From a virus (Duplodnaviria > Heunggongvirae > Uroviricota > Caudoviricetes), in the IMG/VR virus record IMGVR_UViG_2585427747_000001, positions 1-38,011 of that record: a stretch of DNA of 38,011 bases. One strand, written 5' to 3'. The notes under the pieces are model-generated. The model did no database searches. It saw only the letters and a program-made list of their open reading frames with translations, and was not told the DNA's origin. A program made the position numbers and the translations under genes. This document shows positions 3,127 through 38,011 of the stretch, piece by piece. Each line of letters starts with the position of its first letter. Within the stretch, counting starts at the first letter, position 1.

Positions 3127-3191
3127 AATAAGTCCTCACTATATAAAGATATTCAGTGATGAGATAAATAATCAGTTAATTAAAAACGATA

Positions 3192-3554: not shown

Positions 3555-3602
3555 TTTGCTGCTCCTCATCATATCGACCCTGCAAGGCCGATTAGTTTCT
3601 CC

Positions 3603-4007: not shown

Positions 4008-4022
4008 GCAAAAGGAAAAGAA

Positions 4023-4883: not shown

Positions 4884-4920
4884 TTGCGAGATATGCAAGT
4901 GATATTTGCGAGATATGCAA
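4884..4920. promoter_or_regulatory. Putative OL: two tandem 15-bp operator-like sites TTGCGAGATATGCAA (22-bp period), probably overlapping the leftward early promoter
   Basis: Exact direct repeat; the same TTGCG-N6-GCAA pattern recurs between the repressor and cro genes; on the minus strand each site contains a TTGCAT hexamer that could serve as a -35. Confidence 0.55.
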
Positions 4921-4932
4921 CTTTATAGGTAA

Positions 4933-4955
4933 TAAAAAGCCACCTTTCGGTGGCC
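4933..4955 (-). terminator. Rho-independent terminator downstream of the repressor gene
   Basis: GC stem gccacc/ggtggc with a tttc loop; on the minus strand it is followed by a T-run. Confidence 0.55.
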
Positions 4956-4974
4956 GATGGATGGGATATTGAGG

Positions 4975-5667: not shown

Positions 5668-5687
5668 GCGTTTATTACATTTCTTTA

Positions 5688-5748
5688 TTGCGTGATAAGC
5701 AAATCAACTTGCGCAAAATAATTGCGTGAAATAACATGCATAACGCGC
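5688..5748. promoter_or_regulatory. Putative OR/PR/PRM region: operator-like sites TTGCGTGATAAGCAA (~5688-5702), the palindrome TTGCGCAA (~5709-5716) and ATGCATAACGCGCAA (~5734-5748) between the divergent repressor and cro genes
   Basis: Shares the TTGCG-N6-GCAA half-site pattern with the tandem sites at 4884-4920; 97-bp divergent intergenic region. Confidence 0.5.
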
Positions 5749-5764
5749 AATATTTGGAGGACAT

Positions 5765-6025
5765 ATGCAATCACCATTACGAAATGTGCGTAAGGCGCAT
5801 GGTTTCACTTTGCAGCATGTTGCTGCGGGTGTTCAAGTCAATCCAGCGACGTTGAGTCGTATTGAGAGGCTGGAGCAGATTCCATCTATCGAGCTTGCAG
5901 AACGTTTAGCCAATTTTTTTAAGGGTGAAGTCAGCGAAATGCAGATTCTTTATCCGGCACGTTTTCAATCTAGCCAAAACCAGAATGGGTTTAAACCACA
6001 GGAACAGGAGGTGAACCGTGGGTAA
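5765..6025 (+). CDS. Cro-like HTH transcriptional regulator (XRE family)
   Basis: HTH (HGFTLQHVAAGVQVNPATLSRIE) at the N-terminus; divergent from the repressor; RBS GGAGG upstream. Confidence 0.75.
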   Translation: MQSPLRNVRKAHGFTLQHVAAGVQVNPATLSRIERLEQIPSIELAERLANFFKGEVSEMQILYPARFQSSQNQNGFKPQEQEVNRG

Positions 6026-6569
6026 GCATCACTGGAAAGTAGAAAAACAGCCTGAGTGGTACGTGAAAGCTGTCAGAAAAACTATCGCAGCGTTGCCGGG
6101 GGGGTACGCTGAAGCTGCTGACTGGCTGGATGTAACAGAGAACGCATTATTTAACCGCCTTCGTGCCGATGGCGATCAGATTTTCCCGCTGGGATGGGCA
6201 ATGATTTTGCAACGTGCTGGTGGAACTCACTTCATTGCTGACGCTGTGGCCCAGTCTGCAAATGGCGTCTTTGTGTCTCTTCCTGATGTCGAGGATGTGG
6301 ACAACGCCGATATCAACCAACGCCTGCTGGAGGTCATTGAACAGATCGGCAGTTATTCAAAACAGATTCGTTCAGCAATTGAAGACGGTGTAGTGGAACC
6401 GCATGAGAAGACAGCAATTAACGACGAGCTGTACCTCTCAATTTCGAAGCTGCAGGAGCATGCAGCACTGGTCTACAAAATTTTTTGCATTTCAGAAAGT
6501 AATGACGCCCGCGAGTGTGCAGCTCCGGGCGCCGTGGCGTGTCGTGACTGTGGAGAAACTAACGCATGA
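6018..6569 (+). CDS. CII-like phage regulatory protein (CP76 family)
   Basis: Position immediately after cro; 183 aa; family assignment from overall resemblance, not a search. Confidence 0.55.
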
Positions 6570-6904
6570 ATAGTTTAACAACACACTACCGTCGCTCGCA
6601 ACTGATTGCGCTTCCTGTACCGGGTGGAAAAGCGAAGGTGGAGTATTGCTATGCAGTGAATGTACCAGGTGGCAGGGTAATTGTAACCCACAGCTTTGCA
6701 GAGTGGGCTGTGGGTGATTTTAACCGGCAAAAGGAGACAGTCCTTTGCGACAAGTTAACCGCTGGTTCAAAGATCACTACGGAGTACCCGTCAGAGTCAT
6801 TCGTTGGGAGCCGGAAACACAACGGGTTATCTACCTCCGCGAAGGCTATGAGCATGAATGCTTCAGTCCGCTCGAACAGTTTCGTCGTAAATTCAGGGAA
6901 ATAG
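6566..6904 (+). CDS. Hypothetical protein; the C-terminal half is Ser-rich and not protein-like, so the true gene may be shorter or frameshifted
   Basis: 112-aa ORF; start overlaps the upstream stop (ATGA); see the alternative overlapping frame at 6745-6924. Confidence 0.4.
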
Positions 6905-6924
6905 AGGTCGGTCATGAGCACTAA
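6745..6924 (+). CDS. Candidate small protein (~59 aa) with a TTG start in the alternative frame (…[58 protein letters not shown])
   Basis: AGGAGA RBS 7 nt upstream of the TTG; far more protein-like than the overlapping frame; its stop overlaps the start of the replication gene (ATGAGCACTAA), suggesting translational coupling. Confidence 0.4.
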
Positions 6925-7855
6925 ATTAACCGGCTATGTATGGGATGGTTGCGCAGCGTCAGGCATGAAATTATCCAGCGTGGCAATTATGGCACGCCTG
7001 GCTGATTTCAGTAATGACGAAGGTGTGTGCTGGCCATCAATTGAAACCATTGCCCGCCAGATTGGCGCGGGGATGAGTACCGTCAGAACGGCTATCGCAC
7101 GGCTGGAAGCAGAAGGCTGGTTAACGCGTAAGGCGCGTCGCCAGGGTAACCGCAATGCGTCGAATGTTTATCAGCTTAACGTTGCGAAGCTTCAGGCTGC
7201 GGCTTTTTCTCAACTGTCAGATTCTGACCCGTCAAAATCTGACGCATCAAAATCTGACCCGTCAAAATTTGATGCGTCGAAATCTGGCAAAAAAGCGGGT
7301 TTTCACCCGTCAGAATCTGGCGGGGATCCGTCAGTAAAATCAAAACATGATCCGTCAGATAAAAAAACTTCTCGTCCGGACGCTTCGCAACCGGACACGC
7401 AGAAGGCTGAACAGGATTTTTTAACTCGCCATCCTGATGCGGTTGTATTCAGCCCTAAAAAGCGCCAGTGGGGGACGCAGGATGATTTGACCTGCGCACA
7501 GTGGCTCTGGAAAAAAATCATCGCCCTGTACGAGCTGGCTGCCGAATGTGACGGCGAGGTGGTTCGTCCCAAAGAACCGAACTGGACAGCCTGGGCAAAC
7601 GAAATTCGCCTGATGTGTGTGCAGGATGGTCGTACTCACAAACAAATCTGCGAGATGTACAGCCGCGTCAGCCGCGATCCGTTCTGGTGCCGTAACGTGC
7701 TCAGCCCGTCGAAGCTGCGGGAAAAATGGGATGAGCTTTCCCTGCGCTTATCGCCGTCCGTAAGCACGTACACCGAAAAACGCGAAGACCCGTACTTCAA
7801 ATCCAGTTACGACAACGTGGACTACAGCCAGATCCCGGCAGGATTCAGGGGGTGA
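6914..7855 (+). CDS. Replication initiation protein (lambda O-like HTH N-terminus with an internal repeat/linker region)
   Basis: N-terminal winged-helix (VCWPSIETIARQIGAGMSTVRTAIARLEAEGWL); internal DSDPSKSDASKSDPSKFDASKSG repeats encoded by DNA iterons; position after the cII-like gene. Confidence 0.7.
   Translation: MSTKLTGYVWDGCAASGMKLSSVAIMARLADFSNDEGVCWPSIETIARQIGAGMSTVRTAIARLEAEGWLTRKARRQGNRNASNVYQLNVAKLQAAAFSQLSDSDPSKSDASKSDPSKFDASKSGKKAGFHPSESGGDPSVKSKHDPSDKKTSRPDASQPDTQKAEQDFLTRHPDAVVFSPKKRQWGTQDDLTCAQWLWKKIIALYELAAECDGEVVRPKEPNWTAWANEIRLMCVQDGRTHKQICEMYSRVSRDPFWCRNVLSPSKLREKWDELSLRLSPSVSTYTEKREDPYFKSSYDNVDYSQIPAGFRG
7219..7365. repeat. Iteron-like array of ~7 copies of (C)CGTCARAATCTGA, ~15-bp period, inside the replication initiator gene; candidate origin of replication
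   Basis: Read directly: cccgtcaaaatctga / cgcatcaaaatctga / cccgtcaaaatttga / gcgtcgaaatctgg / cccgtcagaatctgg / tccgtcagtaaaatc / tccgtcagataaaaa. Confidence 0.55.
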
Positions 7856-8346
7856 TCATGAGTCTGTTAAATGACGTTCAGAAATTCATTGAAGCCCATC
7901 CGGGGTGTACTTCCGGAGACATTGCGGATGCTTTTGCAGGTTACTCACGGCAGCGCGTTCTGCAGTCAGCAAGCAAGTTACGTCAGAGTGGGCGTGTGGC
8001 TCACCGTTGTGAAGGGGATACACGCAGACATTTCCCGCGCCTGACTGAGAGAGCGCAGGAGCCGGAACCACAACCAGTTCGTGAAACCAGACCTGTGCGC
8101 AATTTCTATGTCGGCACTAACGATCACCGGGTGATTTTGTGCCTGACCCGCCAGGCTGAAGAACTGGAGTCAAGGGGCTTATACCGTCGTGCTGCAACCG
8201 TGTGGATGGCGGCATTCCGTGAAAGCCACTCCCAGCCAGAACGAAACAATTTTCTGGCGCGTCGTGAGCGGTGCTTACGGAAAATCAGCAAGCGCGCTGC
8301 ATCGGGTGAAGAGTGGTATCTGTCAGGGAATTACGTGGGGGCTTAA
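7852..8346 (+). CDS. PerC-like transcriptional regulator (tentative)
   Basis: C-terminal LYRRAATVWMAAFRES resembles the PerC-family signature as recalled; the CDS is well supported but the function is weakly supported. Confidence 0.5.
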   Translation: MIMSLLNDVQKFIEAHPGCTSGDIADAFAGYSRQRVLQSASKLRQSGRVAHRCEGDTRRHFPRLTERAQEPEPQPVRETRPVRNFYVGTNDHRVILCLTRQAEELESRGLYRRAATVWMAAFRESHSQPERNNFLARRERCLRKISKRAASGEEWYLSGNYVGA

Positions 8347-8999
8347 TGAGTAATAAATATTGTCAGGCGCTGGTGGAACTGCGGAACAAACCAGCCCATG
8401 AACTGAAGGAAGTGGGCGATCAGTGGCGCACGCCGGATAACATTTTCTGGGGAATTAACACCCTGTTTGGTCCGTTTGTTCTGGATCTGTTCACTGACGG
8501 TGATAACGCCAAATGTGCTGCGTATTACACGGCGGAAGACAACGCGCTGGCGCATGACTGGTCAGAACGTCTTGCGGAGCTTAAAGGTGCTGCCTTTGGT
8601 AATCCCCCATACAGCCGCGCCAGTCAGCATGAGGGGCAATACATCACCGGCATGCGTTACATCATGAAACATGCCAGTGCTATGCGTGATAAAGGCGGGC
8701 GCTATGTTTTCCTGATCAAAGCTGCCACCAGCGAAGTTTGGTGGCCGGAAGATGCAGACCATATTGCTTTTATTCGCGGGCGTATTGGTTTTGAACTGCC
8801 TGCCTGGTTTATCCCGAAGGATGAGAAGCAGGTGCCGACAGGAGCGTTCTTCGCTGGTGCTATTGCTGTTTTCGACAAGACCTGGAAGGGACCGGCAATC
8901 AGCTACATCGGGCGCGATGAACTTGAGGCATGTGGTGAGGCGTTTCTGGCGCAGGTTCGCCAGCAGGCGGAAAAACTGGTCAGGGAGATGGCGGCATGA
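8346..8999 (+). CDS. Phage DNA N6-adenine methyltransferase
   Basis: Catalytic NPPYS motif (FGNPPYSRA); start trimmed to MSNKYCQ…, whose ATG overlaps the upstream stop (TAATG). Confidence 0.75.
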   Translation: MSNKYCQALVELRNKPAHELKEVGDQWRTPDNIFWGINTLFGPFVLDLFTDGDNAKCAAYYTAEDNALAHDWSERLAELKGAAFGNPPYSRASQHEGQYITGMRYIMKHASAMRDKGGRYVFLIKAATSEVWWPEDADHIAFIRGRIGFELPAWFIPKDEKQVPTGAFFAGAIAVFDKTWKGPAISYIGRDELEACGEAFLAQVRQQAEKLVREMAA

Positions 9000-9322
9000 C
9001 GACGTTAACTCAATGCCAGCAGCAGGTGCTGGATATGCTGATTTCTTACCAGAAAGAACGGGGCTTCCCGCCAACCAATCAGGAGGTGGCAACCATGCTG
9101 GGATATCGTTCGGTGAATGCAGCGGTAGAGCATCTTCGCGCACTGGAGAAAAAAGGCGTCATCACGATAAAGCGTGGCGTGGCCCGGGGGATAACGCTTC
9201 ATACCGCGGTCAAGGACGACGACAGCGAGGCGGTCGGGATTATCCGCGCACTGCTTGCCGGTGAGGAAAACGCCAGGCTGCGTGCGACCCACTGGTTACA
9301 TGAGAGGGGCATGAAAGTATGA
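8996..9322 (+). CDS. Stand-alone LexA N-terminal DNA-binding-domain protein (no peptidase domain)
   Basis: LTQCQQQVLDMLISYQKERGFPPTNQEVATMLGYRSVNAAVEHLRALEKKGVI closely follows the LexA winged-HTH pattern; only 108 aa, so no S24 domain. Confidence 0.65.
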   Translation: MTTLTQCQQQVLDMLISYQKERGFPPTNQEVATMLGYRSVNAAVEHLRALEKKGVITIKRGVARGITLHTAVKDDDSEAVGIIRALLAGEENARLRATHWLHERGMKV

Positions 9323-9708
9323 AGCTGATTCTGCCTTTTCCGCCCAGCGTGAACACGTACTGGCGACACCCCAACAAAGGGGCGTTTGCAGGTAAAAGCC
9401 TGATAAGCGAGGCGGGGCGAAAATTCCAGAGCGCGGCGTGCGCAGCAATAGTTGAGCAGTTACGTCGTCTGCCGAAACCAACGTCGGCACCTGCTTCAGT
9501 GGAGATCGTGTTGTTTCCTCCAGATAACCGGATCCGCGATCTGGACAACTATAACAAGGCTCTGTTTGACGCCCTGACCCACGCGGGTGTGTGGGAAGAC
9601 GACAGTCAGGTGAAAAGAATGCTGGTGGAGTGGGGACCGGTTATCCCGGAAGGGAAGGTCGAGATCACTATCAGTAAGTACGAGAAAACGGCGGGTGCAG
9701 CCGCCTGA
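9319..9708 (+). CDS. rusA: RusA-family Holliday junction resolvase
   Basis: Conserved RusA pattern (PPSVNTYWRH…, …RDLDNYNKALFDALTHAGVWEDDSQV…); 129 aa. Confidence 0.8.
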   Translation: MKLILPFPPSVNTYWRHPNKGAFAGKSLISEAGRKFQSAACAAIVEQLRRLPKPTSAPASVEIVLFPPDNRIRDLDNYNKALFDALTHAGVWEDDSQVKRMLVEWGPVIPEGKVEITISKYEKTAGAAA

Positions 9709-9727
9709 TTAAGAGGAGAAACGAAGT

Positions 9728-10525
9728 ATGAATAATCTGATGGTCATTGATGGTATTGAAGTTCGTCGTGATGCTTATGGTCGTTACAGCCTGAACGATC
9801 TGCACAGGGCTGCCGGTTCTCTGGATAAGCATAAGCCTGCATTCTGGCTCCGCAATGAGCAAACTGAACGTTTAATAAGCGAGTTGCAGATTTGCAACTC
9901 GGTCAATATAGAGCCAGTTAACGTTATTCGTGGCGGAAATAACCAGGGGACGTATGTCTGCAAAGAACTGGTGTATGCCTATGCAATGTGGATCAGCCCG
10001 TCATTCCATCTGAAGGTGATCCGTACTTTCGACATGGTAACCAGCGCACCTGAAAAATTATCCGGACAGGCTGCTGACAAGATGCAGGCTGGCGTGATTC
10101 TGCTGGACTTTATGCGCCGGGAATTAAACCTGTCTAACTCATCAGTGCTTGGTGCCTGTCAGAAACTCCAGGAGGCTGTTGGCTTACCGAATCTGGCACC
10201 GCGCTATGCCATTGATGCTCCTGCTGACGCGCCTGATGGCTCAAGTCGCCCCACGCTGTCGCTGAGTGCACTGCTGAAACAGTATGGTATCCGCCTGACG
10301 GCTAATCAGGCATATCACCAGATGGTGAAGCTGGGGATCGTCGAGCAGCGCGAACGATACAGCCGTACCGCGATTAACAACATCAAAAAATTCTGGTCGC
10401 TGACAGCGAAAGGCTGCATGTTCGGCAAGAACATCACCAGTCCCGCAAATCCGCGCGAGACGCAGCCGCATTTCTTCGAATCCCGATTCCCTGAGCTGTT
10501 AAAGCTGCTCGATACCGTTCATTGA
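9728..10525 (+). CDS. KilA-N domain protein (antirepressor-like)
   Basis: N-terminal KilA-N-like region (IDGIEVRRDAYGRYSLNDLHRAAG…AFWLRNEQTERLISEL). Confidence 0.65.
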   Translation: MNNLMVIDGIEVRRDAYGRYSLNDLHRAAGSLDKHKPAFWLRNEQTERLISELQICNSVNIEPVNVIRGGNNQGTYVCKELVYAYAMWISPSFHLKVIRTFDMVTSAPEKLSGQAADKMQAGVILLDFMRRELNLSNSSVLGACQKLQEAVGLPNLAPRYAIDAPADAPDGSSRPTLSLSALLKQYGIRLTANQAYHQMVKLGIVEQRERYSRTAINNIKKFWSLTAKGCMFGKNITSPANPRETQPHFFESRFPELLKLLDTVH

Positions 10526-10526
10526 G

Positions 10527-11522
10527 GTGACCGTGAGAGCACTACTGACTCCTGAAATTGCCCCGCGTATGGGGATCGTATTGTTCAGGCCAGGTTCAGA
10601 GCTGATGCCCCTGTTTATGCAGGGGCGTGTCCTGCTGGAGCCTGAGCCGGAACGTTATTCATCTTTTGCCAGTGGTGCCGTTCCGGCGGTATCACAACCG
10701 CTGGCGGATGATCCTGCCGTTCGGGGCGTGTTCCGCAATGAGGCAGTGATCCGTCGTGCTGGTGGCGTGGAATGTCTTGAAAGCTGGTTACTTCGTGAAA
10801 AGGGCTGTCAGTGGCCTCATTCCGACTGGCACAGCGAGAACATGACCACAATGCGGCACGCGCCGGGCGCAATCCGTCTGTGCTGGCACTGCGATAACCA
10901 GTTGCGCGATCAGTTCACGGAACGGCTGGAATCAATGGCAACGGATAACTGTGCCCGCTGGGTATTGTCTGTTGTGCGTCGGGATCTCGGTTTTGATGAC
11001 AGTCACGTTGTGACAATGCCGGAACTGTGCTGGTGGCTGGTTCGTAATGACCTGGCGGATGCCTTACCGGAAAGTGCAGCCCGTAAGGCACTGAGATTAC
11101 CGAAGCCTGTTGTGCCGTCTGTCACCCGGGAAAGTGACCTTGTGCCTTCGGTTCCTGCCACCAGCATCATCCAGGATAAGGCGAAAAAGGTGCTGGCGCT
11201 GAAAGTGGATCCGGAGTCGCCGGAGTCTTTTATGTTACGCCCAAAACGTCGCCGCTGGGTTAATGAAAAGTACACGCGCTGGGTTAAGACACAGCCGTGT
11301 GCATGTTGTGGAAAGCCTGCTGATGATCCCCACCACCTGATAGGCCACGGTCAGGGTGGGATGGGTACAAAAGCGCATGACCTCTTTGTGTTGCCTTTGT
11401 GCAGAAAGCATCACGACGAGCTGCATGCGGATACCGTGGCATTTGAAGAGAAGTATGGCTCCCAGCTGGAGCTGATATTTCGTTTTATCGATCGTGCGCT
11501 GGCAATTGGCGTGCTGGCCTGA
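10527..11522 (+). CDS. DUF968-family prophage protein with a C-terminal Cys/His (HNH-like) cluster
   Basis: C-terminus CACCGKPADDPHHLIGHGQGG…LPLCRKHHDELH; typical position before Q in lambdoid prophages. Confidence 0.6.
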   Translation: MTVRALLTPEIAPRMGIVLFRPGSELMPLFMQGRVLLEPEPERYSSFASGAVPAVSQPLADDPAVRGVFRNEAVIRRAGGVECLESWLLREKGCQWPHSDWHSENMTTMRHAPGAIRLCWHCDNQLRDQFTERLESMATDNCARWVLSVVRRDLGFDDSHVVTMPELCWWLVRNDLADALPESAARKALRLPKPVVPSVTRESDLVPSVPATSIIQDKAKKVLALKVDPESPESFMLRPKRRRWVNEKYTRWVKTQPCACCGKPADDPHHLIGHGQGGMGTKAHDLFVLPLCRKHHDELHADTVAFEEKYGSQLELIFRFIDRALAIGVLA

Positions 11523-11539
11523 TTTTGTGGAGAAAGTTG

Positions 11540-11890
11540 ATGCGTGATATGTATGAAGTATTGGACCGCTGGGGAGCATGGGCTGCAGCAGATAACAGTG
11601 GCGTGGACTGGCAGCCGATAGCAGCAGGCTTCAAGGGGCTTTTACCTCATGGCAAAAAGTCACGGATTCAGTGTGATGATGACGAAGGCATTATGATAGA
11701 CAGTTGTGTGGCTCGGTTGAGAAGGTATAAACCAGAGGAATATGAGCTCATCATAGCCCACTTTGTTATTGGTATCTCATTACGCACTATTGCCAAAAAG
11801 AGAAGGTGTTCAGATGGCACGATTAGAAAGGAATTGCAAACTGCAATTGGTTTTGTAGAGGGTATTACGAGCGTTATTGCATGTAAATAA
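11540..11890 (+). CDS. Late-gene antiterminator Q (QuuD-type)
   Basis: MRDMYEVLDRWGAWAAADNSGVDWQPIAAGFKGLL… closely parallels QuuD-type Q proteins; start trimmed to the internal Met. Confidence 0.75.
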   Translation: MRDMYEVLDRWGAWAAADNSGVDWQPIAAGFKGLLPHGKKSRIQCDDDEGIMIDSCVARLRRYKPEEYELIIAHFVIGISLRTIAKKRRCSDGTIRKELQTAIGFVEGITSVIACK

Positions 11891-11892
11891 AA

Positions 11893-11925
11893 GTTAAAAG
11901 CCACCGTAGTGGCTTTTAACTTTTT
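11893..11925. terminator. Strong hairpin (12-bp stem gttaaaagccac/gtggcttttaac, cgta loop) plus T-run just after the Q stop; candidate bidirectional terminator
   Basis: Read directly from the sequence. Confidence 0.65.
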
Positions 11926-12096
11926 AGGATTGTGCAGGTAATGTTTTGTTCAATTTAGTAAAGAAGTTAGATTGGCTTGTTACAGTACGTCGACTCTTTC
12001 CAGAAGTACTCAACTGAAAGAAATCATTGATGCTTTTGGGTTGAGTTCTTTCATAGGCTTGCTTAAGTGACATGTGTTCCCCTTGTCTATTTGTTG

Positions 12097-13380
12097 CTAT
12101 GACCGTGAAAAGTAGTGATGGTTCAGTTCTTTTGCAAAATAGTGCTTACGTTTAACCCAGATAAAACCATCAGCTTTAGAAATGATTGCAACATCTATGG
12201 GGCCTCCCACTGTTTCAGTATCATCGGAGACCTTGCGCTTGAAAGCGGTTAAATTTACTAATGATTCAGCCATATAAGCTAAATCTTGCTTGGGTAAAAA
12301 CTCGATCATATTTACGACTTTGTCAACATAGTTTTCTCGGACAAAGCTATCAATACGCCCCTTGCAATCGGAAACAGTCCTGCGCACTACATCAACTATA
12401 GCATCCTTGGCTCCTTCGATATCTGAAGTGGGCACCAAATCTGTGATTACTGAATCAATACCATCAAGTAAATCGCCGATAGAACGTTGATACTCAGCAT
12501 GAAGATTTTGGATAAGATGTGAACTAGCTCCTTGCATGAAAGCAGAAACTTCATCCTCTTGCGCAAAGGGAGTCACTCCGCAATTAGGAGTGATGCAGCA
12601 CTTGTCAGCATCTGTGGTTTTCCTGATTTTATCATTAAAGAAGCCACAAACTTCATATGATAATACTTTAGGGTAATAGTCTTTATCGCCATAACCTGCA
12701 ATCACAATCCCAGAGACGGAACCAATATCACTTTGCTTGCATATCATAGCTGCCAATACATCACTAACTGCTTTTGTCAACTGTGGAGTTATGGATATTG
12801 AATCAAAGTCACTAAACTTTTGAGCAATGATGCGTTGGGTAACTGATGAAGCATAGGTTTGGGCTGCTTGTTCATCATCCGGAGTAAAACCATCAAAGTA
12901 ATTAATATCAGATAATTTTGTAAGGAGATCGTTGCAATAATTCGTGAGGTCTGTAACAAATTGATTCTTATCGAAGTTAACGAAATATGTTGGTTCGAGA
13001 CCTTCAGAAAAAGCATCAACAAGCATGCTGAATACAATCTCGCTCAGGAAGTGATAAAGATGAGCCTCACGCATACCTGGTGTGATGATTGATTTAGCCG
13101 ACTGTAGATAATTGAAGAAATCCTCAGCATATTCCTCCAAAGAGTCAAAACATTTAGAGCCTAAATCCTTTCTATAAGCCTTAATGATAAGCTCCCATGG
13201 AGCTGTGCAGAGATCACCAGTTCCATATACCATCAAACCTACAGGATGATGTTTAGTTAGAGCGAAAAGCTTTTCAGCGCCATTATAGATTTTATGTTTG
13301 CCGCCTCCAGAAATCGTTACAGCTGAATCTGCGGCTAAAGCTACTGCGGTCTTGTTAAATACGGCTATTTCTGCTGTCAT
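12097..13380 (-). CDS. Proteasome/HslV-like Ntn-hydrolase-domain protein (427 aa); AT-rich accessory gene in the Q-to-lysis slot
   Basis: N-terminus MTAEIAVFNKTAVALAADSAVTIS…VGLMVYGTGD mirrors HslV (Thr after the initiator Met, Asp at mature position 17, downstream Lys); C-terminal GGPIDVAIISKADGFIWV resembles the proteasome beta C-terminal strand; opposite strand to its neighbours; visibly low GC. Confidence 0.6.
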   Translation of the reverse strand: MTAEIAVFNKTAVALAADSAVTISGGGKHKIYNGAEKLFALTKHHPVGLMVYGTGDLCTAPWELIIKAYRKDLGSKCFDSLEEYAEDFFNYLQSAKSIITPGMREAHLYHFLSEIVFSMLVDAFSEGLEPTYFVNFDKNQFVTDLTNYCNDLLTKLSDINYFDGFTPDDEQAAQTYASSVTQRIIAQKFSDFDSISITPQLTKAVSDVLAAMICKQSDIGSVSGIVIAGYGDKDYYPKVLSYEVCGFFNDKIRKTTDADKCCITPNCGVTPFAQEDEVSAFMQGASSHLIQNLHAEYQRSIGDLLDGIDSVITDLVPTSDIEGAKDAIVDVVRRTVSDCKGRIDSFVRENYVDKVVNMIEFLPKQDLAYMAESLVNLTAFKRKVSDDTETVGGPIDVAIISKADGFIWVKRKHYFAKELNHHYFSRS

Positions 13381-13488
13381 TTTTTACATAGGGTTTATAT
13401 GTTGTGTAATGAGAAAAATACAAAAAAATTAACGCGTACGCAAAAATTCTTGTAATCTGTTAAGAGTGGTTACTTCGCCACACAGCTT

Positions 13489-13519
13489 AAACCCGTCTTC
13501 GAGCGGGTTTTGTCGTTTC
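13489..13519 (+). terminator. Hairpin aaacccg…cgggttt followed by a T-rich tract upstream of the lysis genes; candidate tR'-like terminator/antitermination target
   Basis: Read directly; lies between the accessory gene start and the holin. Confidence 0.4.
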
Positions 13520-13662
13520 TGGCCCCGGCTATTCGTTGGGCCTGACCTATCCCGCAGTTATCCATTGGTTCGGCTTCTTTGACGTTTCCGCTTCTGATTT
13601 GCGGTACATGATGTTCCCTCAATTTGCACCTGCTGTATCAGCGAGGTGAGAGATAACTACAA

Positions 13663-13989
13663 ATGCCTCATAACCCAAATACCTGGCTGGAGTTGGTCCA
13701 GAGCTGGTGGCGTGGAGACACACCGCTGGGCGCAGTGATTATGTCGATCGTTATGGCTGGCTTGCGCATTGCCTATTTTGGCGGTGGTGGTGGCTGGAAA
13801 CGAAAAACGCTCGAGATTTTGCTCTGTGGTGCTCTGACGCTGACTTTTGCATCCGCTCTTGAGTATGTCGGATGGCCTAAATCTCTTTCTGTTGCCATTG
13901 GTGGCGGCGTTGGGCTGATCGGTGTCGATGCTATTCGTGGGGCTGCAATGCGAGTAATCGGTAACAAATTTGGTAGCTCGAAGGAGTAA
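13663..13989 (+). CDS. Holin (lambda S-like class I)
   Basis: 108 aa with hydrophobic segments and a charged C-terminus; directly upstream of the R-like endolysin. Confidence 0.75.
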   Translation: MPHNPNTWLELVQSWWRGDTPLGAVIMSIVMAGLRIAYFGGGGGWKRKTLEILLCGALTLTFASALEYVGWPKSLSVAIGGGVGLIGVDAIRGAAMRVIGNKFGSSKE

Positions 13990-13992
13990 TTT

Positions 13993-14469
13993 ATGCAGGC
14001 ACTAAATTCCCAGCGTAAAGCTTTCTTGGATATGGTTGCATGGTCAGAAGGAACGGATAACGGGCGACAACCGACACGTAACCACGGTTATGATGTCATT
14101 GTCGGTGGTGAACTGTTTACTGATTACTCCGATCATCCTCGCAAACTTGTCACGCTAAACCCGAAACTCAAATCAACAGCAGCCGGACGTTACCAGCTTC
14201 TTTCACGCTGGTGGGATGCTTACCGTAAACAGCTTGGCCTGAAAGATTTTTCTCCAGAAAGCCAGGACGCTGTAGCTCTGCAGCAGATTAAAGAGCGTGG
14301 CGCTTTACCGATGATTGACTGCGGCAATATTCGTCAGGCAATCGACCGTTGCAGCAATATCTGGGCGTCGTTACCTGGTGCAGGTTACGGTCAGTATGAA
14401 CATAAAATCGGCGACCTGATTGCCCGATTTAAAGAGGCTGGTGGGGAAGTAAATGAAGCTGAGATATAA
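13993..14469 (+). CDS. R: Endolysin, lambda R-type lytic transglycosylase
   Basis: Near-identity over long stretches to lambda R as recalled (NSQRKAFLDMVAWSEGTDNGRQPTRNHGYDVIVGGELFTDYSDHPRKLVTLNPKLKST…). Confidence 0.9.
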   Translation: MQALNSQRKAFLDMVAWSEGTDNGRQPTRNHGYDVIVGGELFTDYSDHPRKLVTLNPKLKSTAAGRYQLLSRWWDAYRKQLGLKDFSPESQDAVALQQIKERGALPMIDCGNIRQAIDRCSNIWASLPGAGYGQYEHKIGDLIARFKEAGGEVNEAEI

Positions 14470-14845
14470 GCTGGTTATTGTTGCCTTCTTTGTTACCGTT
14501 ATTGGTTCCTTCATCTGGTCTACCGGGCATTACTACAGCAAATATCAACACGAAAAGGAGCGTGCTGATGAGGCTGTACGAAATGCTGAATCAGCAACTG
14601 CCATTACCCGTAACGTTCTGCAATCACTGCAAATCATCAATACAGTTATAGAGGCTAACCAACATGCAAAACAGCAGATCGCACTGGAGTCACAGAGAAC
14701 CCAGGAAGATATCAAAGTGGCTGTTGCGGATGATGATTGTGCTGCACGTCCTGTGCCTGCTGCCGCTGCTGACCGGTTGCGGAAGTACGCGGACGGTTTA
14801 CGTGAGCGATCCGGTGGCACCGCTGCCAGCCAGCCTGACTTCTGA
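14453..14845 (+). CDS. Rz-like inner-membrane spanin
   Basis: N-terminal TM segment, then coiled-coil; follows the endolysin; contains the embedded Rz1 frame. Confidence 0.7.
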   Translation: MKLRYKLVIVAFFVTVIGSFIWSTGHYYSKYQHEKERADEAVRNAESATAITRNVLQSLQIINTVIEANQHAKQQIALESQRTQEDIKVAVADDDCAARPVPAAAADRLRKYADGLRERSGGTAASQPDF

Positions 14846-15002
14846 TACTCCAGTACCGTTTATACCCAATCCGCTGACGTATGGTACCAGTCTGGAGTTG
14901 AATGTTGCTCTATTGTCAGCCTTGGGACAATGTAATTTTGATAAAACTGGAATCAGAAATATTGAATCACGGCGCGCTATTTTGCATTCGAAAAATAAAT
15001 AG
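14730..15002 (+). CDS. Rz1-like outer-membrane lipoprotein spanin, embedded in the +1 frame of Rz
   Basis: Lipobox LLTGC after a hydrophobic signal (MMIVLHVLCLLPLLTGCGS); Pro-rich mature region; start at the internal Met of the 14664 ORF. Confidence 0.6.
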   Translation: MMIVLHVLCLLPLLTGCGSTRTVYVSDPVAPLPASLTSDTPVPFIPNPLTYGTSLELNVALLSALGQCNFDKTGIRNIESRRAILHSKNK

Positions 15003-15370
15003 CTCGAGTTATATTTTTCATTATCGTTGCGAATGCTCCTAATAAAGCTGTGTATTATGGTAATTTTATAAAGCCTATGGGTTTAAGTTCAGATGCTAGC
15101 GTTTTTATAGCGTAATGTAGCAGCTTACATAAAATATGCATCGTGATTAACTATTAGGCCAACCTTTTGGACCAATATGAAAGTGGAAGTTTATACAAAT
15201 CGTTTGTCGATGATTAAACATGTGTCTAGTAGCGCTAGTCATGAACAGGTTTATTACGTATCATTTTGTGTAGATTATCGAGAGTACAACTAGTAGAGCA
15301 GCTAATCTTTAGATAGTGCCAGTGATGTTCACTTGCGATAAACTAACCTTTTCATTCAGTGGAGGTTATT

Positions 15371-15805
15371 ATGTGGCATACATTACTTAACTGGCCTTGG
15401 GGAACTGTGTGGTCAGCTGTATCGGCTTTAGGTTCAATTGTAACTGTTACATTAGGTTTTTGGGCAATGAATGTTTGGCGGCGACAGGAGGCTCTGAAGG
15501 CCAAAATGGCTCTGAAAATGGCAGTGGCTGATTATTCAAATGCATTATCACAACTACCTTTATCTCTTAGTCGTAATGTTCGTATTGAAAAAAGGGCCGA
15601 GCTACGAGAGTTAAATCATAAATTAAATGCTGTTAATAATGCTTTTTTGATATGCGAACATATGTTGGAAAAATACCCGCGTGTAAACAGCGGTTGTCGT
15701 TCTTTATCTGTTGCCCACAAAGAATATATTAGAATGAGAGATAATAGTATTCAGGCGAAATATATTTGTCATAATATCCTTTCAGAACAGTTTGTATTCA
15801 AATGA
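15371..15805 (+). CDS. Hypothetical membrane protein in an AT-rich island after the lysis cassette
   Basis: N-terminal TM helix (LLNWPWGTVWSAVSALGSIVTVTLGFWAM); GGAGG RBS 5 nt upstream of the ATG; low-GC 930-bp island 15003-15930. Confidence 0.55.
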   Translation: MWHTLLNWPWGTVWSAVSALGSIVTVTLGFWAMNVWRRQEALKAKMALKMAVADYSNALSQLPLSLSRNVRIEKRAELRELNHKLNAVNNAFLICEHMLEKYPRVNSGCRSLSVAHKEYIRMRDNSIQAKYICHNILSEQFVFK

Positions 15806-15932
15806 AAATGAACGATTGGTATTTACTTGCCGTTTATTCATTGGATTGAAAAGTCTATTTAACAAACCGTGTTAAAGCGGTTTCTGATTGCAGTTATGGT
15901 TAGATATTTAACGAAAACTACAGGGGTAATAG

Positions 15933-16283
15933 ATGCCTCCACGAACCCCAAAAGCCTGCCGCGTTCGCGGCTGCCGCCATACCACAACTGACCAGTCAGG
16001 CTATTGCGAAAGCCACAAAAGCGAAGGCTGGAAGCAATACAAACCTGGACAATCTCGTCATCAGCGCGGTTATGGTTCGAAGTGGGACGCTATCCGCGCG
16101 CGTGTGCTGAAGCGTGACAAAGGTTTATGTCAGTTATGTCTGCGTGCCGGTGTGGTGCGTGAGGCGAAAACCGTTGACCACATCATCCCTAAAGCGCATG
16201 GCGGCACTGATGCCGACTGTAATCTGCAGAGTCTGTGTTGGCCGTGTCATAAGGCGAAGACGGCCCGTGAACGGTTAAAGTGA
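15933..16283 (+). CDS. HNH endonuclease (packaging-associated)
   Basis: HNH motifs (DHIIPKAHGG…NLQSLCWPCH) and an N-terminal Cys cluster; directly upstream of the terminase genes. Confidence 0.8.
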   Translation: MPPRTPKACRVRGCRHTTTDQSGYCESHKSEGWKQYKPGQSRHQRGYGSKWDAIRARVLKRDKGLCQLCLRAGVVREAKTVDHIIPKAHGGTDADCNLQSLCWPCHKAKTARERLK

Positions 16284-28228: not shown

Positions 28229-28675
28229 TTACTGTGCGAACACGCAATTTCGGCCTGATGGGGAGCCGACAATTCTGGACATTTTTTCGCAAATAACAGT
28301 TACTTGTTCTCCTTTTTTAAGAGCAGCAGCTGTTGATTTTTCAGAGTCTTGCATCTCCATTCTTGCTGGCATGAATTCATTTTCAGTTCTGAATTTAATA
28401 ATTATAGAGTCAGTAAAGTCCTTATCAATGGATTGTACGATACCTCTAACGGCGATTAATTTACCTTTTAACTGTTCATCGGTAGCGACTTCATTTTCTT
28501 CATACTCTTTAAACAGCTGTCGAGCAGTAGTGTTGTAGATTTCTTTTTGCGGTGCCGCAGCTTCCGTATCGGATGAGTATGAAGAATTAGAGCCTTTATC
28601 GTTATTGCCTGCAAAATATCCAATAATCACCAACCCGATGAAAATATATAAAATCCATTTTAATAATTTCTTCAT
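28229..28675 (-). CDS. Membrane-anchored/secreted OB-fold-like protein; AT-rich accessory gene inside the tail module
   Basis: N-terminal signal/TM (MKKLLKWILYIFIGLVIIGYFAG), no lipobox Cys; the mature region resembles small periplasmic OB-fold proteins; opposite strand to all neighbours; AT-rich. Confidence 0.55.
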   Translation of the reverse strand: MKKLLKWILYIFIGLVIIGYFAGNNDKGSNSSYSSDTEAAAPQKEIYNTTARQLFKEYEENEVATDEQLKGKLIAVRGIVQSIDKDFTDSIIIKFRTENEFMPARMEMQDSEKSTAAALKKGEQVTVICEKMSRIVGSPSGRNCVFAQ

Positions 28676-33786: not shown

Positions 33787-34719
33787 ATGCATCGTATAGA
33801 CACGAAAACCGCGCAGAAGGATAAGTTCGGCGCGGGTAAGAACGGTTTTACCCGTGGTAACCCCCAGACCGGCACACCTGCCACCGATCTGGATGATGAC
33901 TACTTTGACATGTTGCAGGAAGAACTTTGTAGCGTGGTGGAGGCCTCCGGTGCCAGCCTGGAGAAGGAGCGGCACGACCAGTTGCTTACCGCGCTTCGTG
34001 CGCTGCTGTTAAGCCGCAAGAATCCGTTTGGTGATATCAAATCGGATGGCACGGTGAAAACGGCTCTCGAAAACCTTGGTTTGGGAGATGGCTCGGGGCG
34101 TTACTGCAAAACTGTCGTTTTTTCATCGTCGGGTTCATATACGTGGCCAGCTGACGTAAAACGAATTGACGTTATTCTGACTGCGGCTGGCGGCGGTGGC
34201 GGTGGATGTAACGCGGAGAACGCAAATCAGACATTTTCAGGGGCTGGCGGAGGAGCCGGAGGTACTGTTTTTGCCACTATTTATGCGACAGACAACGATG
34301 CCGGGCCAGGAACCTATACAGTGACAATTGGCAGCGGTGGTAGTGGTGCCAATGGGGCAGGGTCTGGAAATAATGGCGGTAATAGTTCGTTCATGACATT
34401 AACTGCGCTCGGTGGCCAGGGTGGGCAATGGGGCGGCGCTACAAATACCGCTGGCGGGCGCGGTGGCTCAGGCTCTGGCGGTTATAAAACTGAACAAGGC
34501 GGAGACGGTTCAGACGGACAGGCGGGCCAGGCGCTATTAGTAGGCAATGGGGCATCGAGCTATTGGGGTGGCGGCGGCCGCGCTGGGCAACTGAGCGGTA
34601 ATCCTGGAGTTTGCTCTGGCTCCGGCGGCGGGGGTGCATACGATAATAGCTATTCACACACGTCAGGACGTGGCGGGCACGGAGCTAATGGCGTGCTGGT
34701 AATTCGGGAGTACATGTAA
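33787..34719 (+). CDS. Tail fibre protein with Gly-rich C-terminal repeats
   Basis: Conserved tail-fibre-like N-terminus ([47 protein letters not shown]); long Gly-rich low-complexity region; followed by a tail fibre assembly gene. Confidence 0.7.
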
Positions 34720-35124
34720 ATGAATGATATCTATGCAGTTGTTGATAATAACGTTGTTATTAATGTCATTATCTGGGACGGAATTTCTGAATGGAAACCA
34801 GAGGCTGGTAATTTAGTTCCGTTAAACGGCGATGCTGGCATCGGTTGGTCATATTCAGACGGAGTATTTACCGCGCCACCTCCCCCAGAACGCTCTCACA
34901 ACGCGTTAGTTGCGGAGGCTGAGCTGCAGAAATCAGCACTACTGACCGTAGCAAATAACACAATAGCACCGCTGCAGGATGCCGTTGATTTGGAAATGGC
35001 GACAGACGATGAACAGGCGTTACTGCTGGCGTGGAAAAAATACAGGGTACTGCTGAACCGTGTTGATACCTCAGCGGCACCCGAAATAGAGTGGCCTACG
35101 CAACCGGGGGAGCGGGCCAGTTGA
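34720..35124 (+). CDS. Tail fibre assembly protein (Tfa)
   Basis: C-terminal region (…[33 protein letters not shown]) typical of Tfa chaperones. Confidence 0.7.
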
Positions 35125-35290
35125 TATCAGGCGCAGCGTCAGCATCAACTGCTGTCACTGCGTCGATGTAGTCGAGTACCGCATTCAGCCGCGTTTTTTC
35201 ATCATCAGTCAGTTTGCGGCCTGCACTTCTCCGTTGACATCTTTGTTATATGGTACAACTGCGCAGAGGCCTGTCTCTTCAATTGTGCCA
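35095..35290 (-). pseudogene. Inverted remnant of a second tail fibre assembly gene (C-terminal fragment only)
   Basis: Minus-strand translation …[37 protein letters not shown]… parallels the C-terminus of the adjacent plus-strand Tfa (TDDE…AAPEIEWP); no upstream partner gene; coordinates approximate. Confidence 0.4.
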
Positions 35291-35382
35291 GTTGAATACT
35301 ACGATACAACGCTCGGCCTTCCTGTTTGGTGGAACATAACCACATCCACATGGAAAAGAGCTGATGGTGTAGATGTATAAAC

Positions 35383-35412
35383 TTAAAAAAGGCGCTTTTT
35401 AGCGCCTTTAAA
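35383..35412. terminator. Bidirectional rho-independent terminator (aaaaaaggcgc ttttt agcgccttt)
   Basis: Perfect GC stem flanked by A-run and T-run; sits between the convergent tail fibre genes and the acyltransferase gene. Confidence 0.7.
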
Positions 35413-36537
35413 TTAAGATATTCTTTTAGCTATAGAATGACCTATATTTATAAACGGTTTTTCTATTACGTTATATATCAAGTAAGATAGGCTTATAGAA
35501 ATTATGAGCGATGATATATAAATGGCAAACGATCTATGTTCAGTGCTAACACCAATGCTGGAACCGTAAAACTCAATAAACTGTATAACAGGAACATGAA
35601 TCAGATAAAGTGAATATGATATTCCACCAAGAGCAACAAGTGATTTATTGAATGAAATAACTTTATTATTTTCTAGAATAATAACACATAAAACAATCAG
35701 AAATGCAATATATGCAGATCGCGTCAAACCATGTCCTTCAGACACCCCATTAAGCCAAAAAACAAACATCATTCCTAGAATGAAAACGCATAAACTATTT
35801 ATAATAGCATTATTCATTCTTTTATGCCTAAGTAAAGGCATTGTCTCTGATATAATCATCCCTAAAATGAAATCATATACTATAGGGTTGCCTATGAATC
35901 CTATATGAGAAAACACTCCTGTTTTTGCAATATTGAATGATTGGGCGTCAATTACTACCGAGTGGTTAAAGTAAAGAGAAATAATTGTACTTACAGCAAC
36001 TAGAAAACATGATGTGATTAATACCCTGTATTTTATACTTAATGACATGGATATTGCGAAAATAAAATAAAAATATATCTCGTACCCAAGTGACCATGAA
36101 ACAATTAGTGTTCCCCACCCATAATATGGCGGTAGAGTTGAGCCATCTAAAGGGATGAGAAGAAATGATTTTATAATATTATTTATAGAAAAAACACCAC
36201 CCCATGATACGCCTGTGTAAATATTGTGGTAAAAAAGAAAAACATAAACGCTTAATACTATTGCGTAAACAGGATAAATTCTAAAAAATCTCTTTACAAG
36301 AAATGAAGCGGTATTTCTTAAAGATGTTTTCGCTAAGTTTTTAGTTGAGTATGATATTATAAATCCGCTTATTATAAAAAACAATTCAACTCCAAATATA
36401 GCATTCGCGGTTATCCTGTCCATGAAAGAACCAGGATCTACTTGCCCGAAAAGACCTCTATTATGACCAATAGCTACAGCAAGAGCTGCAATTCCACGAA
36501 GCGCTTCTATTCCGTATAATTTATCTGTTTTCATCAA
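35413..36537 (-). CDS. Acyltransferase family 3 integral membrane protein (O-antigen acetylase-like lysogenic conversion gene)
   Basis: 374 aa, ~10 predicted TM segments; N-terminal YGIEALRGIAALAVAIGH motif typical of the OafA/Oac acyltransferase-3 family; very AT-rich; next to the integrase at attR. Confidence 0.75.
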   Translation of the reverse strand: MMKTDKLYGIEALRGIAALAVAIGHNRGLFGQVDPGSFMDRITANAIFGVELFFIISGFIISYSTKNLAKTSLRNTASFLVKRFFRIYPVYAIVLSVYVFLFYHNIYTGVSWGGVFSINNIIKSFLLIPLDGSTLPPYYGWGTLIVSWSLGYEIYFYFIFAISMSLSIKYRVLITSCFLVAVSTIISLYFNHSVVIDAQSFNIAKTGVFSHIGFIGNPIVYDFILGMIISETMPLLRHKRMNNAIINSLCVFILGMMFVFWLNGVSEGHGLTRSAYIAFLIVLCVIILENNKVISFNKSLVALGGISYSLYLIHVPVIQFIEFYGSSIGVSTEHRSFAIYISSLIISISLSYLIYNVIEKPFINIGHSIAKRIS

Positions 36538-36677
36538 GTAATATAGTTAGTAGTTGATAAAATTGTTGCTGGAGTCTACCACCAAGAGCTTGGATGATCG
36601 ACCAGTTAGCATCTCAAGCTGTATGCGTGAGACAAAAACGAGACACACAAAGCTTTGCAAGTCTTTGCGCTGTTTAC

Positions 36678-37835
36678 CTATGATACCTTCTCCTCAAGCC
36701 AGTCCGCCCACCACTGCATCATTTCTCTGCGCTTATCGAGATACTGAGCATGGTTGTAAATACCGCGCACAGATCCGCCGTTGGCATGTGCCAGCTGCAC
36801 TTCAATAGCGTCAGCAGGCCATTCGTGCTCGTTCATAATCGTGCTGAATTCATGCCTGAATCCGTGACCGCTTTCCAGACCTTCATAGCCGATTTGTTTG
36901 ATCACAAGCAATACCGCGTTCTCGCAGATTGGCTTCTTCTTATCGTTGCGCCCGGCAAAAACAAACTCTGAGACTGGTTTGGTGATTGAGCTTAGCGTAG
37001 TGAGAAGTTCAACCACCTGGTCTGACATCGGGACCACATGAATTTTGCGTCCCTTCATCACACTGGCGTCGATGGTGATAATCCTGTTTTCAAAATCGAC
37101 GTTCTTCCATAGCATGGAACGAAGCTCTTTCGTTCTTAGGGCTGTATAACGTAAAACTTTTGTCGCAATGAGCGATACGATACTTCCTGAAAATGTTGCC
37201 AGTGCTTTGTTGAATGCAGGCATCTGGTCTGCTGGAAGGAACGGGAAGTTCTTCTTGCGGTATCCTTTCATGGCGTCTGCAAGGTCAGGTGCCGGGTTAT
37301 ATTTAGCCCTTCCGGTGACAATAGCGTAACGAAAAACCTCGCCGCATCTTCTGCGGGCTTTGTTGGCTCGCTCCATTGCACCGCGATCTTCAAATCTGCG
37401 GATTACTTCCAGCAGTTGCATCGGCTCAATATCCTGAATCTCAAGACCGCCGATGATGGGTAAAATGTCGTCATCAAACATTTTGGCAAGTTCAGTTGCA
37501 TAGCCTACTGACCAGACTTGCTTCTTGTGCTCGTACCATTCCTTGTAAATCGCACTAAATGAATTGTTGTTAGACGAAGCCTTTTTCGCCTTTACCGGAT
37601 CGATGCCAACCGAGATGTCTTTCCTCGCAGTCCATGCCTTATCCCTTGCTTCCTGCAAAGTCATAAGCGGATATTTTCCGACAGTCAGGATTTTCTCCTT
37701 ACCGTCAATCTTGTAGCGAAGCTGCCATACCTTTTTCCCTGATACAGGGACATAAAGGTACAGGCCATTACCATCGAGTAGGCGGTATGGTTTTTCTTTC
37801 GGCTTTGCTGCTTCAATCTGCTTAACGGTGAGCAT
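36678..37835 (-). CDS. intS: Tyrosine integrase (P4-type), IntS-like
   Basis: Start trimmed to MLTVKQIEAAKPKEK…; C-terminal catalytic region (…HGFRHEF…LAHANGGSVRGIYNH…Y); adjacent to attR and the tRNA 3' end. Confidence 0.85.
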   Translation of the reverse strand: MLTVKQIEAAKPKEKPYRLLDGNGLYLYVPVSGKKVWQLRYKIDGKEKILTVGKYPLMTLQEARDKAWTARKDISVGIDPVKAKKASSNNNSFSAIYKEWYEHKKQVWSVGYATELAKMFDDDILPIIGGLEIQDIEPMQLLEVIRRFEDRGAMERANKARRRCGEVFRYAIVTGRAKYNPAPDLADAMKGYRKKNFPFLPADQMPAFNKALATFSGSIVSLIATKVLRYTALRTKELRSMLWKNVDFENRIITIDASVMKGRKIHVVPMSDQVVELLTTLSSITKPVSEFVFAGRNDKKKPICENAVLLVIKQIGYEGLESGHGFRHEFSTIMNEHEWPADAIEVQLAHANGGSVRGIYNHAQYLDKRREMMQWWADWLEEKVS

Positions 37836-37881
37836 GGGTAAAAATCCGGTGGGTAAAATTATTTTATCCACTTTTTACCCG
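37836..37881. promoter_or_regulatory. Three TTTTACCC motifs (two on the minus strand, one on the plus strand) over the intS start/promoter in the attR arm
   Basis: gggtaaaa at ~37836-37843 and ~37851-37858, ttttaccc at ~37873-37880; shared with the attL arm. Confidence 0.4.
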
Positions 37882-37989
37882 TCATGGAGTGCGGCTGTCA
37901 ACGATCTGACGCGAACCATGACGAACCGTGAATATACGGAAGGCTTGATATTCAGGGGATTTTGCGGACTGGTACGGATGGGAGCGAAC

Positions 37990-38011
37990 TGATAAATGGT
38001 GTCCCCTGCAG
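37990..38011. repeat. attR core: second copy of the 22-bp direct repeat; its last ~14 nt are the 3' end of a minus-strand tRNA-Arg gene whose body lies beyond the window
   Basis: Exact repeat of positions 1-22; minus-strand reading gives …CTGCAGGGGACACCA (T-stem 3' strand, acceptor stem, discriminator, CCA); integrase start ~155 bp away. Confidence 0.75.

Follow-up and report, generated by a model that had tools for sequence, protein, structure and literature searches.

The question raised by this locus is what a single AT-rich acyltransferase gene does at the end of a prophage, between the tail-fibre genes and the integrase. The gene lies on the minus strand (35413–36534) of a 38,011-nucleotide stretch of tailed-phage DNA, IMG/VR record IMGVR_UViG_2585427747_000001, positions 1 to 38,011 (hereafter the window), and encodes a membrane protein of the acyltransferase-3 (AT3) family. 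The answer to which the data point, with a probability of roughly three in four, is that the gene is a lysogenic-conversion O-acetyltransferase for the O-antigen of the Escherichia coli O17/O44/O73/O77/O106 group (the O77 group), changing the epitope and the surface presented to O-antigen-binding phages.

The initial annotation described an AT-rich polytopic AT3 gene between tail-fibre genes and integrase, and this description is borne out by composition, topology, family and neighbours. The protein matches Acyl_transf_3 (PF01757 / IPR002656) over residues 8–355 with E 9.5e-29 and 100.9 bits (Pfam cut-off 31), covering positions 2–325 of the 326 of the profile, and also matches PHROG 3333, “O-acetyltransferase,” with E 1e-86. 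Ten membrane helices and no extra domain are predicted by hydropathy and by an AlphaFold model (predicted local distance difference test score 92.3, predicted template modelling score 0.92), and, as there is neither a second Pfam domain nor an SGNH fusion, the architecture is AT3-only. The GC content of the gene is 31.6% (23% at third codon positions), compared with 50.6% for the window and 53–58% for the flanking tail genes. The minus-strand open reading frame (ORF) at 35413–36537, reported in the initial annotation as 374 amino acids, does exist, but it opens at a TTG one codon before the ATG at 36534, which is the likely start and results in a protein of 373 amino acids; this ATG is the one chosen by the Prokaryotic Genome Annotation Pipeline (PGAP) for the locus of E. 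coli C4, which is 99.7% identical (WP_000845327.1, “acyltransferase family protein”) and is conserved in a Salmonella copy with 90% identity. The assignment of the coding sequence combines the ORF, the PF01757 and PHROG 3333 matches, the PGAP call in C4, the motifs, and the AlphaFold model.

The motifs identified by Pearson et al. 2020 across characterised AT3 carbohydrate acetyltransferases are present in the window protein. The R/K-X10-H motif of transmembrane helix (TMH) 1 is represented by R13-X10-H24, where, in a family alignment of 62 relatives, H24 never varies and R13 reaches at least 90% conservation; FFIISG at residues 52–57 corresponds to the FFXISG motif of TMH2 with F52, F53, S56, and G57 invariant in the same alignment; and R82-F-F-R85 corresponds to the RXXR motif at TMH3 with both R82 and R85 invariant. 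When solved structures were searched by sequence no match to the window protein was found, and in a fold search of the PDB with Foldseek the best hit was human HGSNAT, an acetyl-CoA transmembrane acetyltransferase, as a weak match (probability 1.0, template modelling score 0.44). PADLOC gave no defence-system match for the gene, a DNA search of a phage collection with the gene region gave no match, and in the literature no report of this protein was found.

The position of the gene is shared with O-antigen modification genes of related phages. In the prophage of E. coli 042 (O44:H18) gtrA-gtrB-gtrC comes after the same tail fibre, the same assembly gene, and the same relic of an inverted second assembly gene, at the prophage end by ybhB, and this prophage is credited with the glucose side-branch of O44 (PMC7685785, PMC10304059). 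In the K-12 prophage CPS-53 the slot between intS and the assembly genes is occupied by yfdGHI, that is gtrABS; in Sf6 it holds oac, and in SfII oacD stands directly after the tail-fibre assembly gene and is followed by gtrII. The acyltransferase is thus an exact slot replacement of gtrABC when compared with 042, and the same is shown directly against gtrABS of CPS-53 and oac of Sf6, so that it represents temperate-phage cargo between receptor-binding genes and the integrase with its attachment site, interchangeable with gtr, oac, and oacD. According to the slot contents of 042, CPS-53, Sf6, and SfII, the argument of the initial annotation that serotype-converting phages carry gtrABC or oac in this position is correct in detail. 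The likeness to 042 gtrABC and CPS-53 gtrABS includes the identical slot bounded by the relic and homologous leader and promoter regions, and the O-antigen group of the 042 host is that of the carriers of the window gene; the difference is that gtrABC and gtrABS add glucose by means of three genes, whereas the module of the window would add an acyl group by means of one. In Kapi1, an argW phage that modifies O-antigen, a comparable gene was not found.

The control region likewise belongs to the gtr type. The 143 bp between the integrase stop and the acyltransferase start (36535–36677, minus strand) are homologous to the leaders of P22 gtrA, K-12 yfdG, and 042 gtrA, and keep the conserved upstream block and the promoter part without the Dam/OxyR switch segment. 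In the Salmonella copy the leader contains four GATC sites spaced 13/51/13 and three boxes resembling OxyR half-sites, of which the central one is perfect (ATAGnTnnnAnCTAT), in the same geometry as in the gtrA leader of phage P22. Such a Dam/OxyR layout is the phase-variation signature of gtr operons (Davies 2013) and has been reported upstream of oafB (PMC9558356). In the window leader there is a single GATC and OxyR boxes are absent, as a 69-bp segment with GATC sites 1–3 and two OxyR boxes, present in Salmonella, is missing from it; in a comparison of positions 7860–7930 of the Salmonella locus (L003) with the window around 36600, the E. coli allele is seen to carry a clean 69-bp deletion. 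The two copies form a natural pair of alleles, that of Salmonella putatively switchable and that of E. coli locked.

In alignment with the P22 and Salmonella leaders a promoter is predicted at 36573–36601 (minus strand), with a −35 element TCGATC (36601–36596), a 17-nt spacer, and a −10 element TAGACT (36578–36573); transcription would begin near 36566. The single GATC of the window leader is located inside this −35 element, and in Davies 2013 the −35 of gtr likewise overlies GATC-4. The leaders of K-12 yfdG and 042 gtrA have the same reduced layout as the window leader, and in Davies et al. 2013 a gtr operon that kept just the −35 and −10 did not phase-vary; since the window leader is similarly reduced to its promoter part, expression without phase variation is predicted. 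Directly 3′ of the stop codon an intrinsic terminator hairpin with a T-run (35388–35409, minus strand) is the sole terminator-like site in 35000–36800, and the hairpin is conserved in the 90% Salmonella copy. The gene is oriented opposite to the late operon and has its own terminator and, as predicted by homology, a weak gtr-type promoter.

A silent or decaying cargo gene with no phenotype in the lysogen might be suspected from this leader, where the activating OxyR sites are absent, the −35 is weak (3/6), and a Shine-Dalgarno sequence is not obvious; however, a leader shortened in the same way precedes the gtr operons of K-12 and 042, every carrier has an intact ORF (DNA identity 99–99.7% over the gene-spanning query), and the catalytic motifs are all retained. 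Between the window gene and the 90%-identical Salmonella copy the ratio of nonsynonymous to synonymous substitution (dN/dS) is 0.10 at dS 0.53, which indicates that the gene is under purifying selection and is functional rather than a relic, and the suspicion of a silent gene can hardly be credited.

The comparison with characterised acyltransferases determines how far the designation “Oac-type acetylase” of the initial annotation can be retained. The AT3-only architecture and the motifs support it, but orthology of the window protein to Oac, OacB, and OacD was tested and is rejected: the alignment with Oac is limited to the first 80 residues (31% identity, E 3e-7), the match to OacB has E 0.022 over 67 residues, and that to OacD has E 0.16. 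On a profile of the family OacB scored 68 bits, Oac 51, WecH 37, OpgC −4, and OacD −15.

Oac (OacA) of Sf6 is, like the window protein, an AT3-only enzyme with about ten transmembrane helices and with the R/K-X10-H, FFXISG, and RXXR motifs, and its gene likewise lies on the integrase strand between a receptor-binding protein gene and an IntS-type integrase, which is 99% identical to that of the window; however, Sf6 is a podovirus and the window phage a myovirus. Oac acetylates rhamnose I of the Shigella flexneri O-antigen (PMC9558356), while the O77-group backbone contains no rhamnose (PMC7685785). The oacD gene of SfII (SfII_25), a close relative of the window phage with 97% identity over the morphogenesis genes and with gtrII in addition, resembles the window gene in its minus-strand position immediately behind the tail-fibre assembly gene and in having its own terminator, and OacD acetylates O-6 of GlcNAc (PMC9558356). 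OafA and OafB of Salmonella, the latter being a family II GtrC, acetylate O-antigen by means of an AT3 domain, as is proposed for the window protein, and oafB has a gtr-type Dam/OxyR phase-variation leader as in the Salmonella copy, the switch being absent from the window copy; they differ in being AT3-SGNH fusions that include a periplasmic domain and an 11th helix, an SGNH domain being absent from the window protein. Thus “Oac-type” fits the architecture only, and the window protein is an uncharacterised member of a well-known class of phage cargo.

The nature of the transferred group is another matter in which the family allows a choice. The AT3 family includes succinyl and other acyl transferases, and the closest NCBIfam match, far below threshold, is the mycobacterial SucT (described there as an acetyltransferase), so that a non-acetyl group, for example succinyl as in OpgC or a longer acyl chain, might be considered. 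This match, the single one in NCBIfam, scored 17 bits against a cut-off of 1275 and is taken as meaningless, OpgC does not match the family profile, and the phage-borne AT3 modifiers of O-antigen characterised so far are all O-acetyltransferases (PMC9558356). A group other than acetyl is accordingly judged highly improbable, and acetyl is the group we infer.

The relatives of the gene show a uniform genomic context. All ten that were inspected (32–90% identity) lie next to a gtrABC operon or, across four or more phage types, next to tail-fibre or tailspike genes, and the best homologues are not enzymes for non-surface substrates. The 90% Salmonella copy follows the tail fibre at the end of a lambdoid prophage of siphovirus type; a 67% relative in Enterobacter hormaechei lies beside a putative tail protein of 664 amino acids in a podovirus-like prophage; a 50% relative in E. 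coli has the order argW-int-AT3-assembly gene; and 47% relatives in Salmonella and in isolated P22-like phages (SI8 and others) have the order argW-int-AT3-tailspike. At 36% identity two E. coli clusters show tailspike-AT3-int-argW (in one place at another chromosomal site) and a Salmonella Millesi copy follows a P22-like tailspike, while a 34% relative in Proteus mirabilis follows a tailspike with a SASA esterase domain and relatives of 32–33% in Cronobacter stand next to gtrA-gtrB-gtrC. These data support the reading of the initial annotation that the gene is an O-antigen modification module, as far as a function may be deduced from sequence, and a change of the phage's own receptor, which was also proposed there, may follow from it.

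The closest relatives in sequenced phage isolates are those of the P22-like Salmonella phages SI8, Si3, SF6, SI5, SF10, and S.Inf 5-2, whose AT3 proteins are 46.5–47.1% identical to the window protein over the full length and whose genes lie between integrase and tailspike at argW. The vehicles of these genes are podoviruses, the hosts belong to serogroup C1 (Infantis, Montevideo, Braenderup), and the genes are annotated only as “exopolysaccharide production protein.” The 36% clade of P0033 type was found in eight chicken E. coli genomes, one host being typed as O123/O186, and the 50% clade (P0010) was not found among complete E. coli genomes. In the Proteus mirabilis prophage (locus L038; 9118–11091 and 8001–9074) the relative adjoins a tailspike with a SASA (sialate O-acetylesterase/SGNH-like) domain, and the pair places an acetyl-adding cargo beside a receptor-binding protein that is possibly acetyl-removing. 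On the chromosome of Cronobacter turicensis (locus L036, 8001–12167) the relative and gtrA-gtrB-gtrC form an islet outside any recognisable prophage.

The distribution among hosts suggests the acceptor. The gene is carried by 5 of 5426 complete E. coli genomes, always in the same arrangement at argW, and all five carriers have the O17/O44/O73/O77/O106 O-antigen cluster (wzy/wzx), while the background of O77-group wzy is 94 of the 5426 genomes (1.7%), 042 among them (Fisher p = 1.4e-9 with carriers taken as independent, and about 3e-4 if they are counted as two lineages; in carrier 2018-05-2CC the flanking alleles are clearly different). Beyond complete genomes, one entry for the protein (P0121) is by itself seen on 590 contigs. 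In Salmonella the 90% copy is carried by a lambdoid prophage unrelated to the window phage; the serovars after which its cluster is named are Carrau, with the formula 6,14,[24], and Beaudesert. Of the more distant clades, one takes its name from Cerro and another from Montevideo, Infantis, and Braenderup. From this host distribution the predicted acceptor is the backbone of the O77 group, and also Salmonella O:6,14. The O77-group backbone is →6)-αMan-(1→2)-αMan-(1→2)-βMan-(1→3)-αGlcNAc-(1→, and O17, O44, O73, O77, and O106 are held to differ only by prophage-encoded glucose branches (PMC7685785, PMC10304059).

It is on these host data that another envelope glycan as the target can be judged. 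Enterobacterial common antigen, as for WecH, colanic acid, capsule, or osmoregulated periplasmic glucans, as for OpgC, might be acylated instead, because WecH and OpgC are AT3-only E. coli proteins with such substrates, the substrate is not readable from sequence alone, and WecH still reaches 37 bits on the family profile. Yet these glycans occur in nearly all E. coli, while the gene is confined to O77-group hosts (5/5 against 1.7%); moreover, the gtr slot and the gtr-type leader, the association of the relatives with receptor-binding protein genes, and the negative profile score of OpgC all speak against a different glycan, which makes this possibility very unlikely.

Several points weigh against the proposed function and acceptor. 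AT3 phylogeny is a poor predictor of substrate, and no close characterised homologue was found, the nearest ones sharing motif-level similarity only. The link to Salmonella assumes that O:6,14 shares the O77 backbone, as was reportedly described by Wang et al. in 2007, and that Beaudesert belongs to group H of the Kauffmann-White scheme. A strict sigma-70 consensus scan of the spacer between the integrase and the acyltransferase detected no promoter, and the assignment of the promoter is by homology to gtr leaders. An O-acetyl group on O77-group O-antigens is not described in reviews (PMC7685785) and was not found in literature searches. Finally, the carrier lineages are few and four of the five carriers may be related, so that the association with E. 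coli hosts could mirror the host range of the vehicle phage and not the specificity of the enzyme.

If the association were such a by-product, the enzyme would modify O-antigen with a broad or different specificity, or the O77 backbone would not be its substrate. Besides the small number of lineages among the five carriers, this is favoured by the tail genes, to which a prophage of 042, likewise an O77-group strain, has counterparts of 97.8% identity, so that the phage family itself may be restricted to such hosts. It is opposed by the copy in the unrelated lambdoid prophage of another genus, where the serovars named are assigned to O:6,14, by the distant clades in Cerro, Montevideo, Infantis, and Braenderup, which presumably have other mannose-rich O-antigens, and by the strong purifying selection on the gene, and we consider it quite unlikely.

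Under the preferred reading, that of an O77-group O-acetyltransferase, the mechanism would be as follows. By analogy with the AT3 family, the acetyl group would be taken from a cytoplasmic donor, presumably acetyl-CoA, by means of the R13/H24 pair of TMH1 and R82-X2-R85, and would be passed across the inner membrane through the channel of the ten-helix protein. At the periplasmic face it would be transferred to a hydroxyl of the undecaprenyl-linked O-antigen made by Wzx/Wzy, before ligation to lipid A-core. Transcription in the lysogen would proceed from the gtr-type promoter without the Dam/OxyR switch and would end at the gene's own terminator. The altered O-antigen epitope would perhaps be less accessible to O-antigen-binding phages and to serotype-specific antibodies, and acetylation would represent the counterpart of the glucosylation that sets O17, O44, O73, and O106 apart from O77.

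The vehicle of the gene is an SfII/SfV-like myovirus integrated at argW. The window represents a complete prophage from att to att, with the 22-bp direct repeat TGATAAATGGTGTCCCCTGCAG as att core at the left (1–22) and right (37990–38011) ends, a repeat that in E. coli C4 coincides with the 3′ end of argW (tRNA-Arg). In the morphogenesis genes it shares about 97% identity with SfII, SfI, SfIV, and SfV, which are serotype-converting myoviruses of Shigella. The receptor-binding protein of the vehicle is a tail fibre with a glycine-rich C-terminal domain (33787–34719, plus strand; Pfam Gly_rich_2 and tail-fibre PHROGs; 97.8% identical to the 042 prophage), followed by a tail-fibre assembly protein (34720–35124, plus strand; Pfam Caudo_TAP, E 4.6e-33), and the integrase (36678–37835, minus strand; Pfam Phage_integrase, Phage_int_M, and Arm-DNA-bind_3) is an IntS-type tyrosine integrase of the argW-specific family, whose counterpart in C4 is annotated intS beside tRNA-Arg. 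The left border of the cargo slot is the relic C-terminus of a second, inverted tail-fibre assembly gene (35105–35210, minus strand; tblastn 46% identity to residues 95–129 of the assembly protein), which is a PGAP pseudogene in both C4 and 042 and borders the gtr cargo in 042; the relic suggests that an invertible segment for host range, of the kind seen in Mu, P1, or e14, was once present and that cargo has taken the place of its invertase side.

The right end of the window is a three-part mosaic, in which the sequence up to 35380 matches the 042 prophage at 97.8%, the middle (35358–36582) is 86.6% identical to the Salmonella enterica locus, and the right arm (36685–38011) is 96.5–96.7% identical to the int-att arm of Sf6 and K-12 CPS-53, so that the cargo segment between the two joints comprises 35381–36684. 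The early region (1–16000) is a different mosaic, to which prophages of many E. coli genomes show about 96.5% identity; the proteins annotated there include yfdQ, DUF968, PAPS-reductase-domain, and TIR-domain proteins. Neither half of the window is covered beyond about 78% by any single complete E. coli genome or sequenced phage.

Other genes of low GC content are found elsewhere in the window. An ORF of 427 amino acids (12097–13380, minus strand, about 39% GC) is located between antiterminator Q (11525–11890) and the holin (13663–13989), at the classic moron position, which in Stx phages is taken by toxin genes; neither Pfam nor PADLOC gave a match to it, and PHROG 5990 (function unknown) is the only hit. 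Another ORF, of 148 amino acids (28229–28675, minus strand), lies antisense in the tail operon between the tape-measure and DNA-circularisation genes, encodes an OB-fold domain of tRNA_anti-like type, and has a match to PHROG 8545, “superinfection exclusion Sie-like”; in the 042 prophage an ORF at the equivalent position is annotated “OB-fold protein.” Just upstream of the terminase region the interval 15359–16283 (plus strand, about 38% GC) includes an ORF of 148 amino acids (PHROG 6169, function unknown) and an HNH endonuclease (15933–16283).

A broader and, in our estimation, unlikely proposal is that the AT3 clade together with its 47–50% relatives comprises the as yet unassigned determinants of phage-associated minor O factors on mannose-rich O-antigens, in which case the window gene would define an unrecognised O-acetylated E. 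coli O77 sub-serotype. The minor factors in question may be O:24 or O:25 (Salmonella group H, Carrau versus Madelia) or O:14 (groups C1 and K). In the Kauffmann-White scheme Carrau (6,14,[24]) carries O:14, and Beaudesert, Cerro, Montevideo, Infantis, and Braenderup are taken to carry it too. In Davies 2013, O:14 was found not to be a product of the S. Infantis gtr operons.

For E. coli the importance of the gene lies in the O77 group being the counterpart of Shigella flexneri, where one O-antigen cluster is diversified into serogroups by prophage side-chain genes. So far only glucosylation is known in this group (PMC7685785), which includes ST69 (sequence type 69) uropathogens, the enteroaggregative strain 042, and the clone of the 2025 French haemolytic uraemic syndrome outbreak, and which cannot be subdivided by wzx/wzy typing (PMC13188871). 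An AT3-only gene directly behind a gtr-type control region, occurring as putatively phase-variable (Salmonella) and locked (E. coli) alleles, is a feature above routine. If the proposed function is true, a prophage acetylase specific for the O77 backbone would create an unrecognised antigenic variant, would offer a possible sub-typing marker and a candidate cause of differences in phage resistance and antibody escape among O77-group strains, and would provide an AT3-only enzyme that is tractable, is encoded by a single gene, and has a defined acceptor of mannan type.

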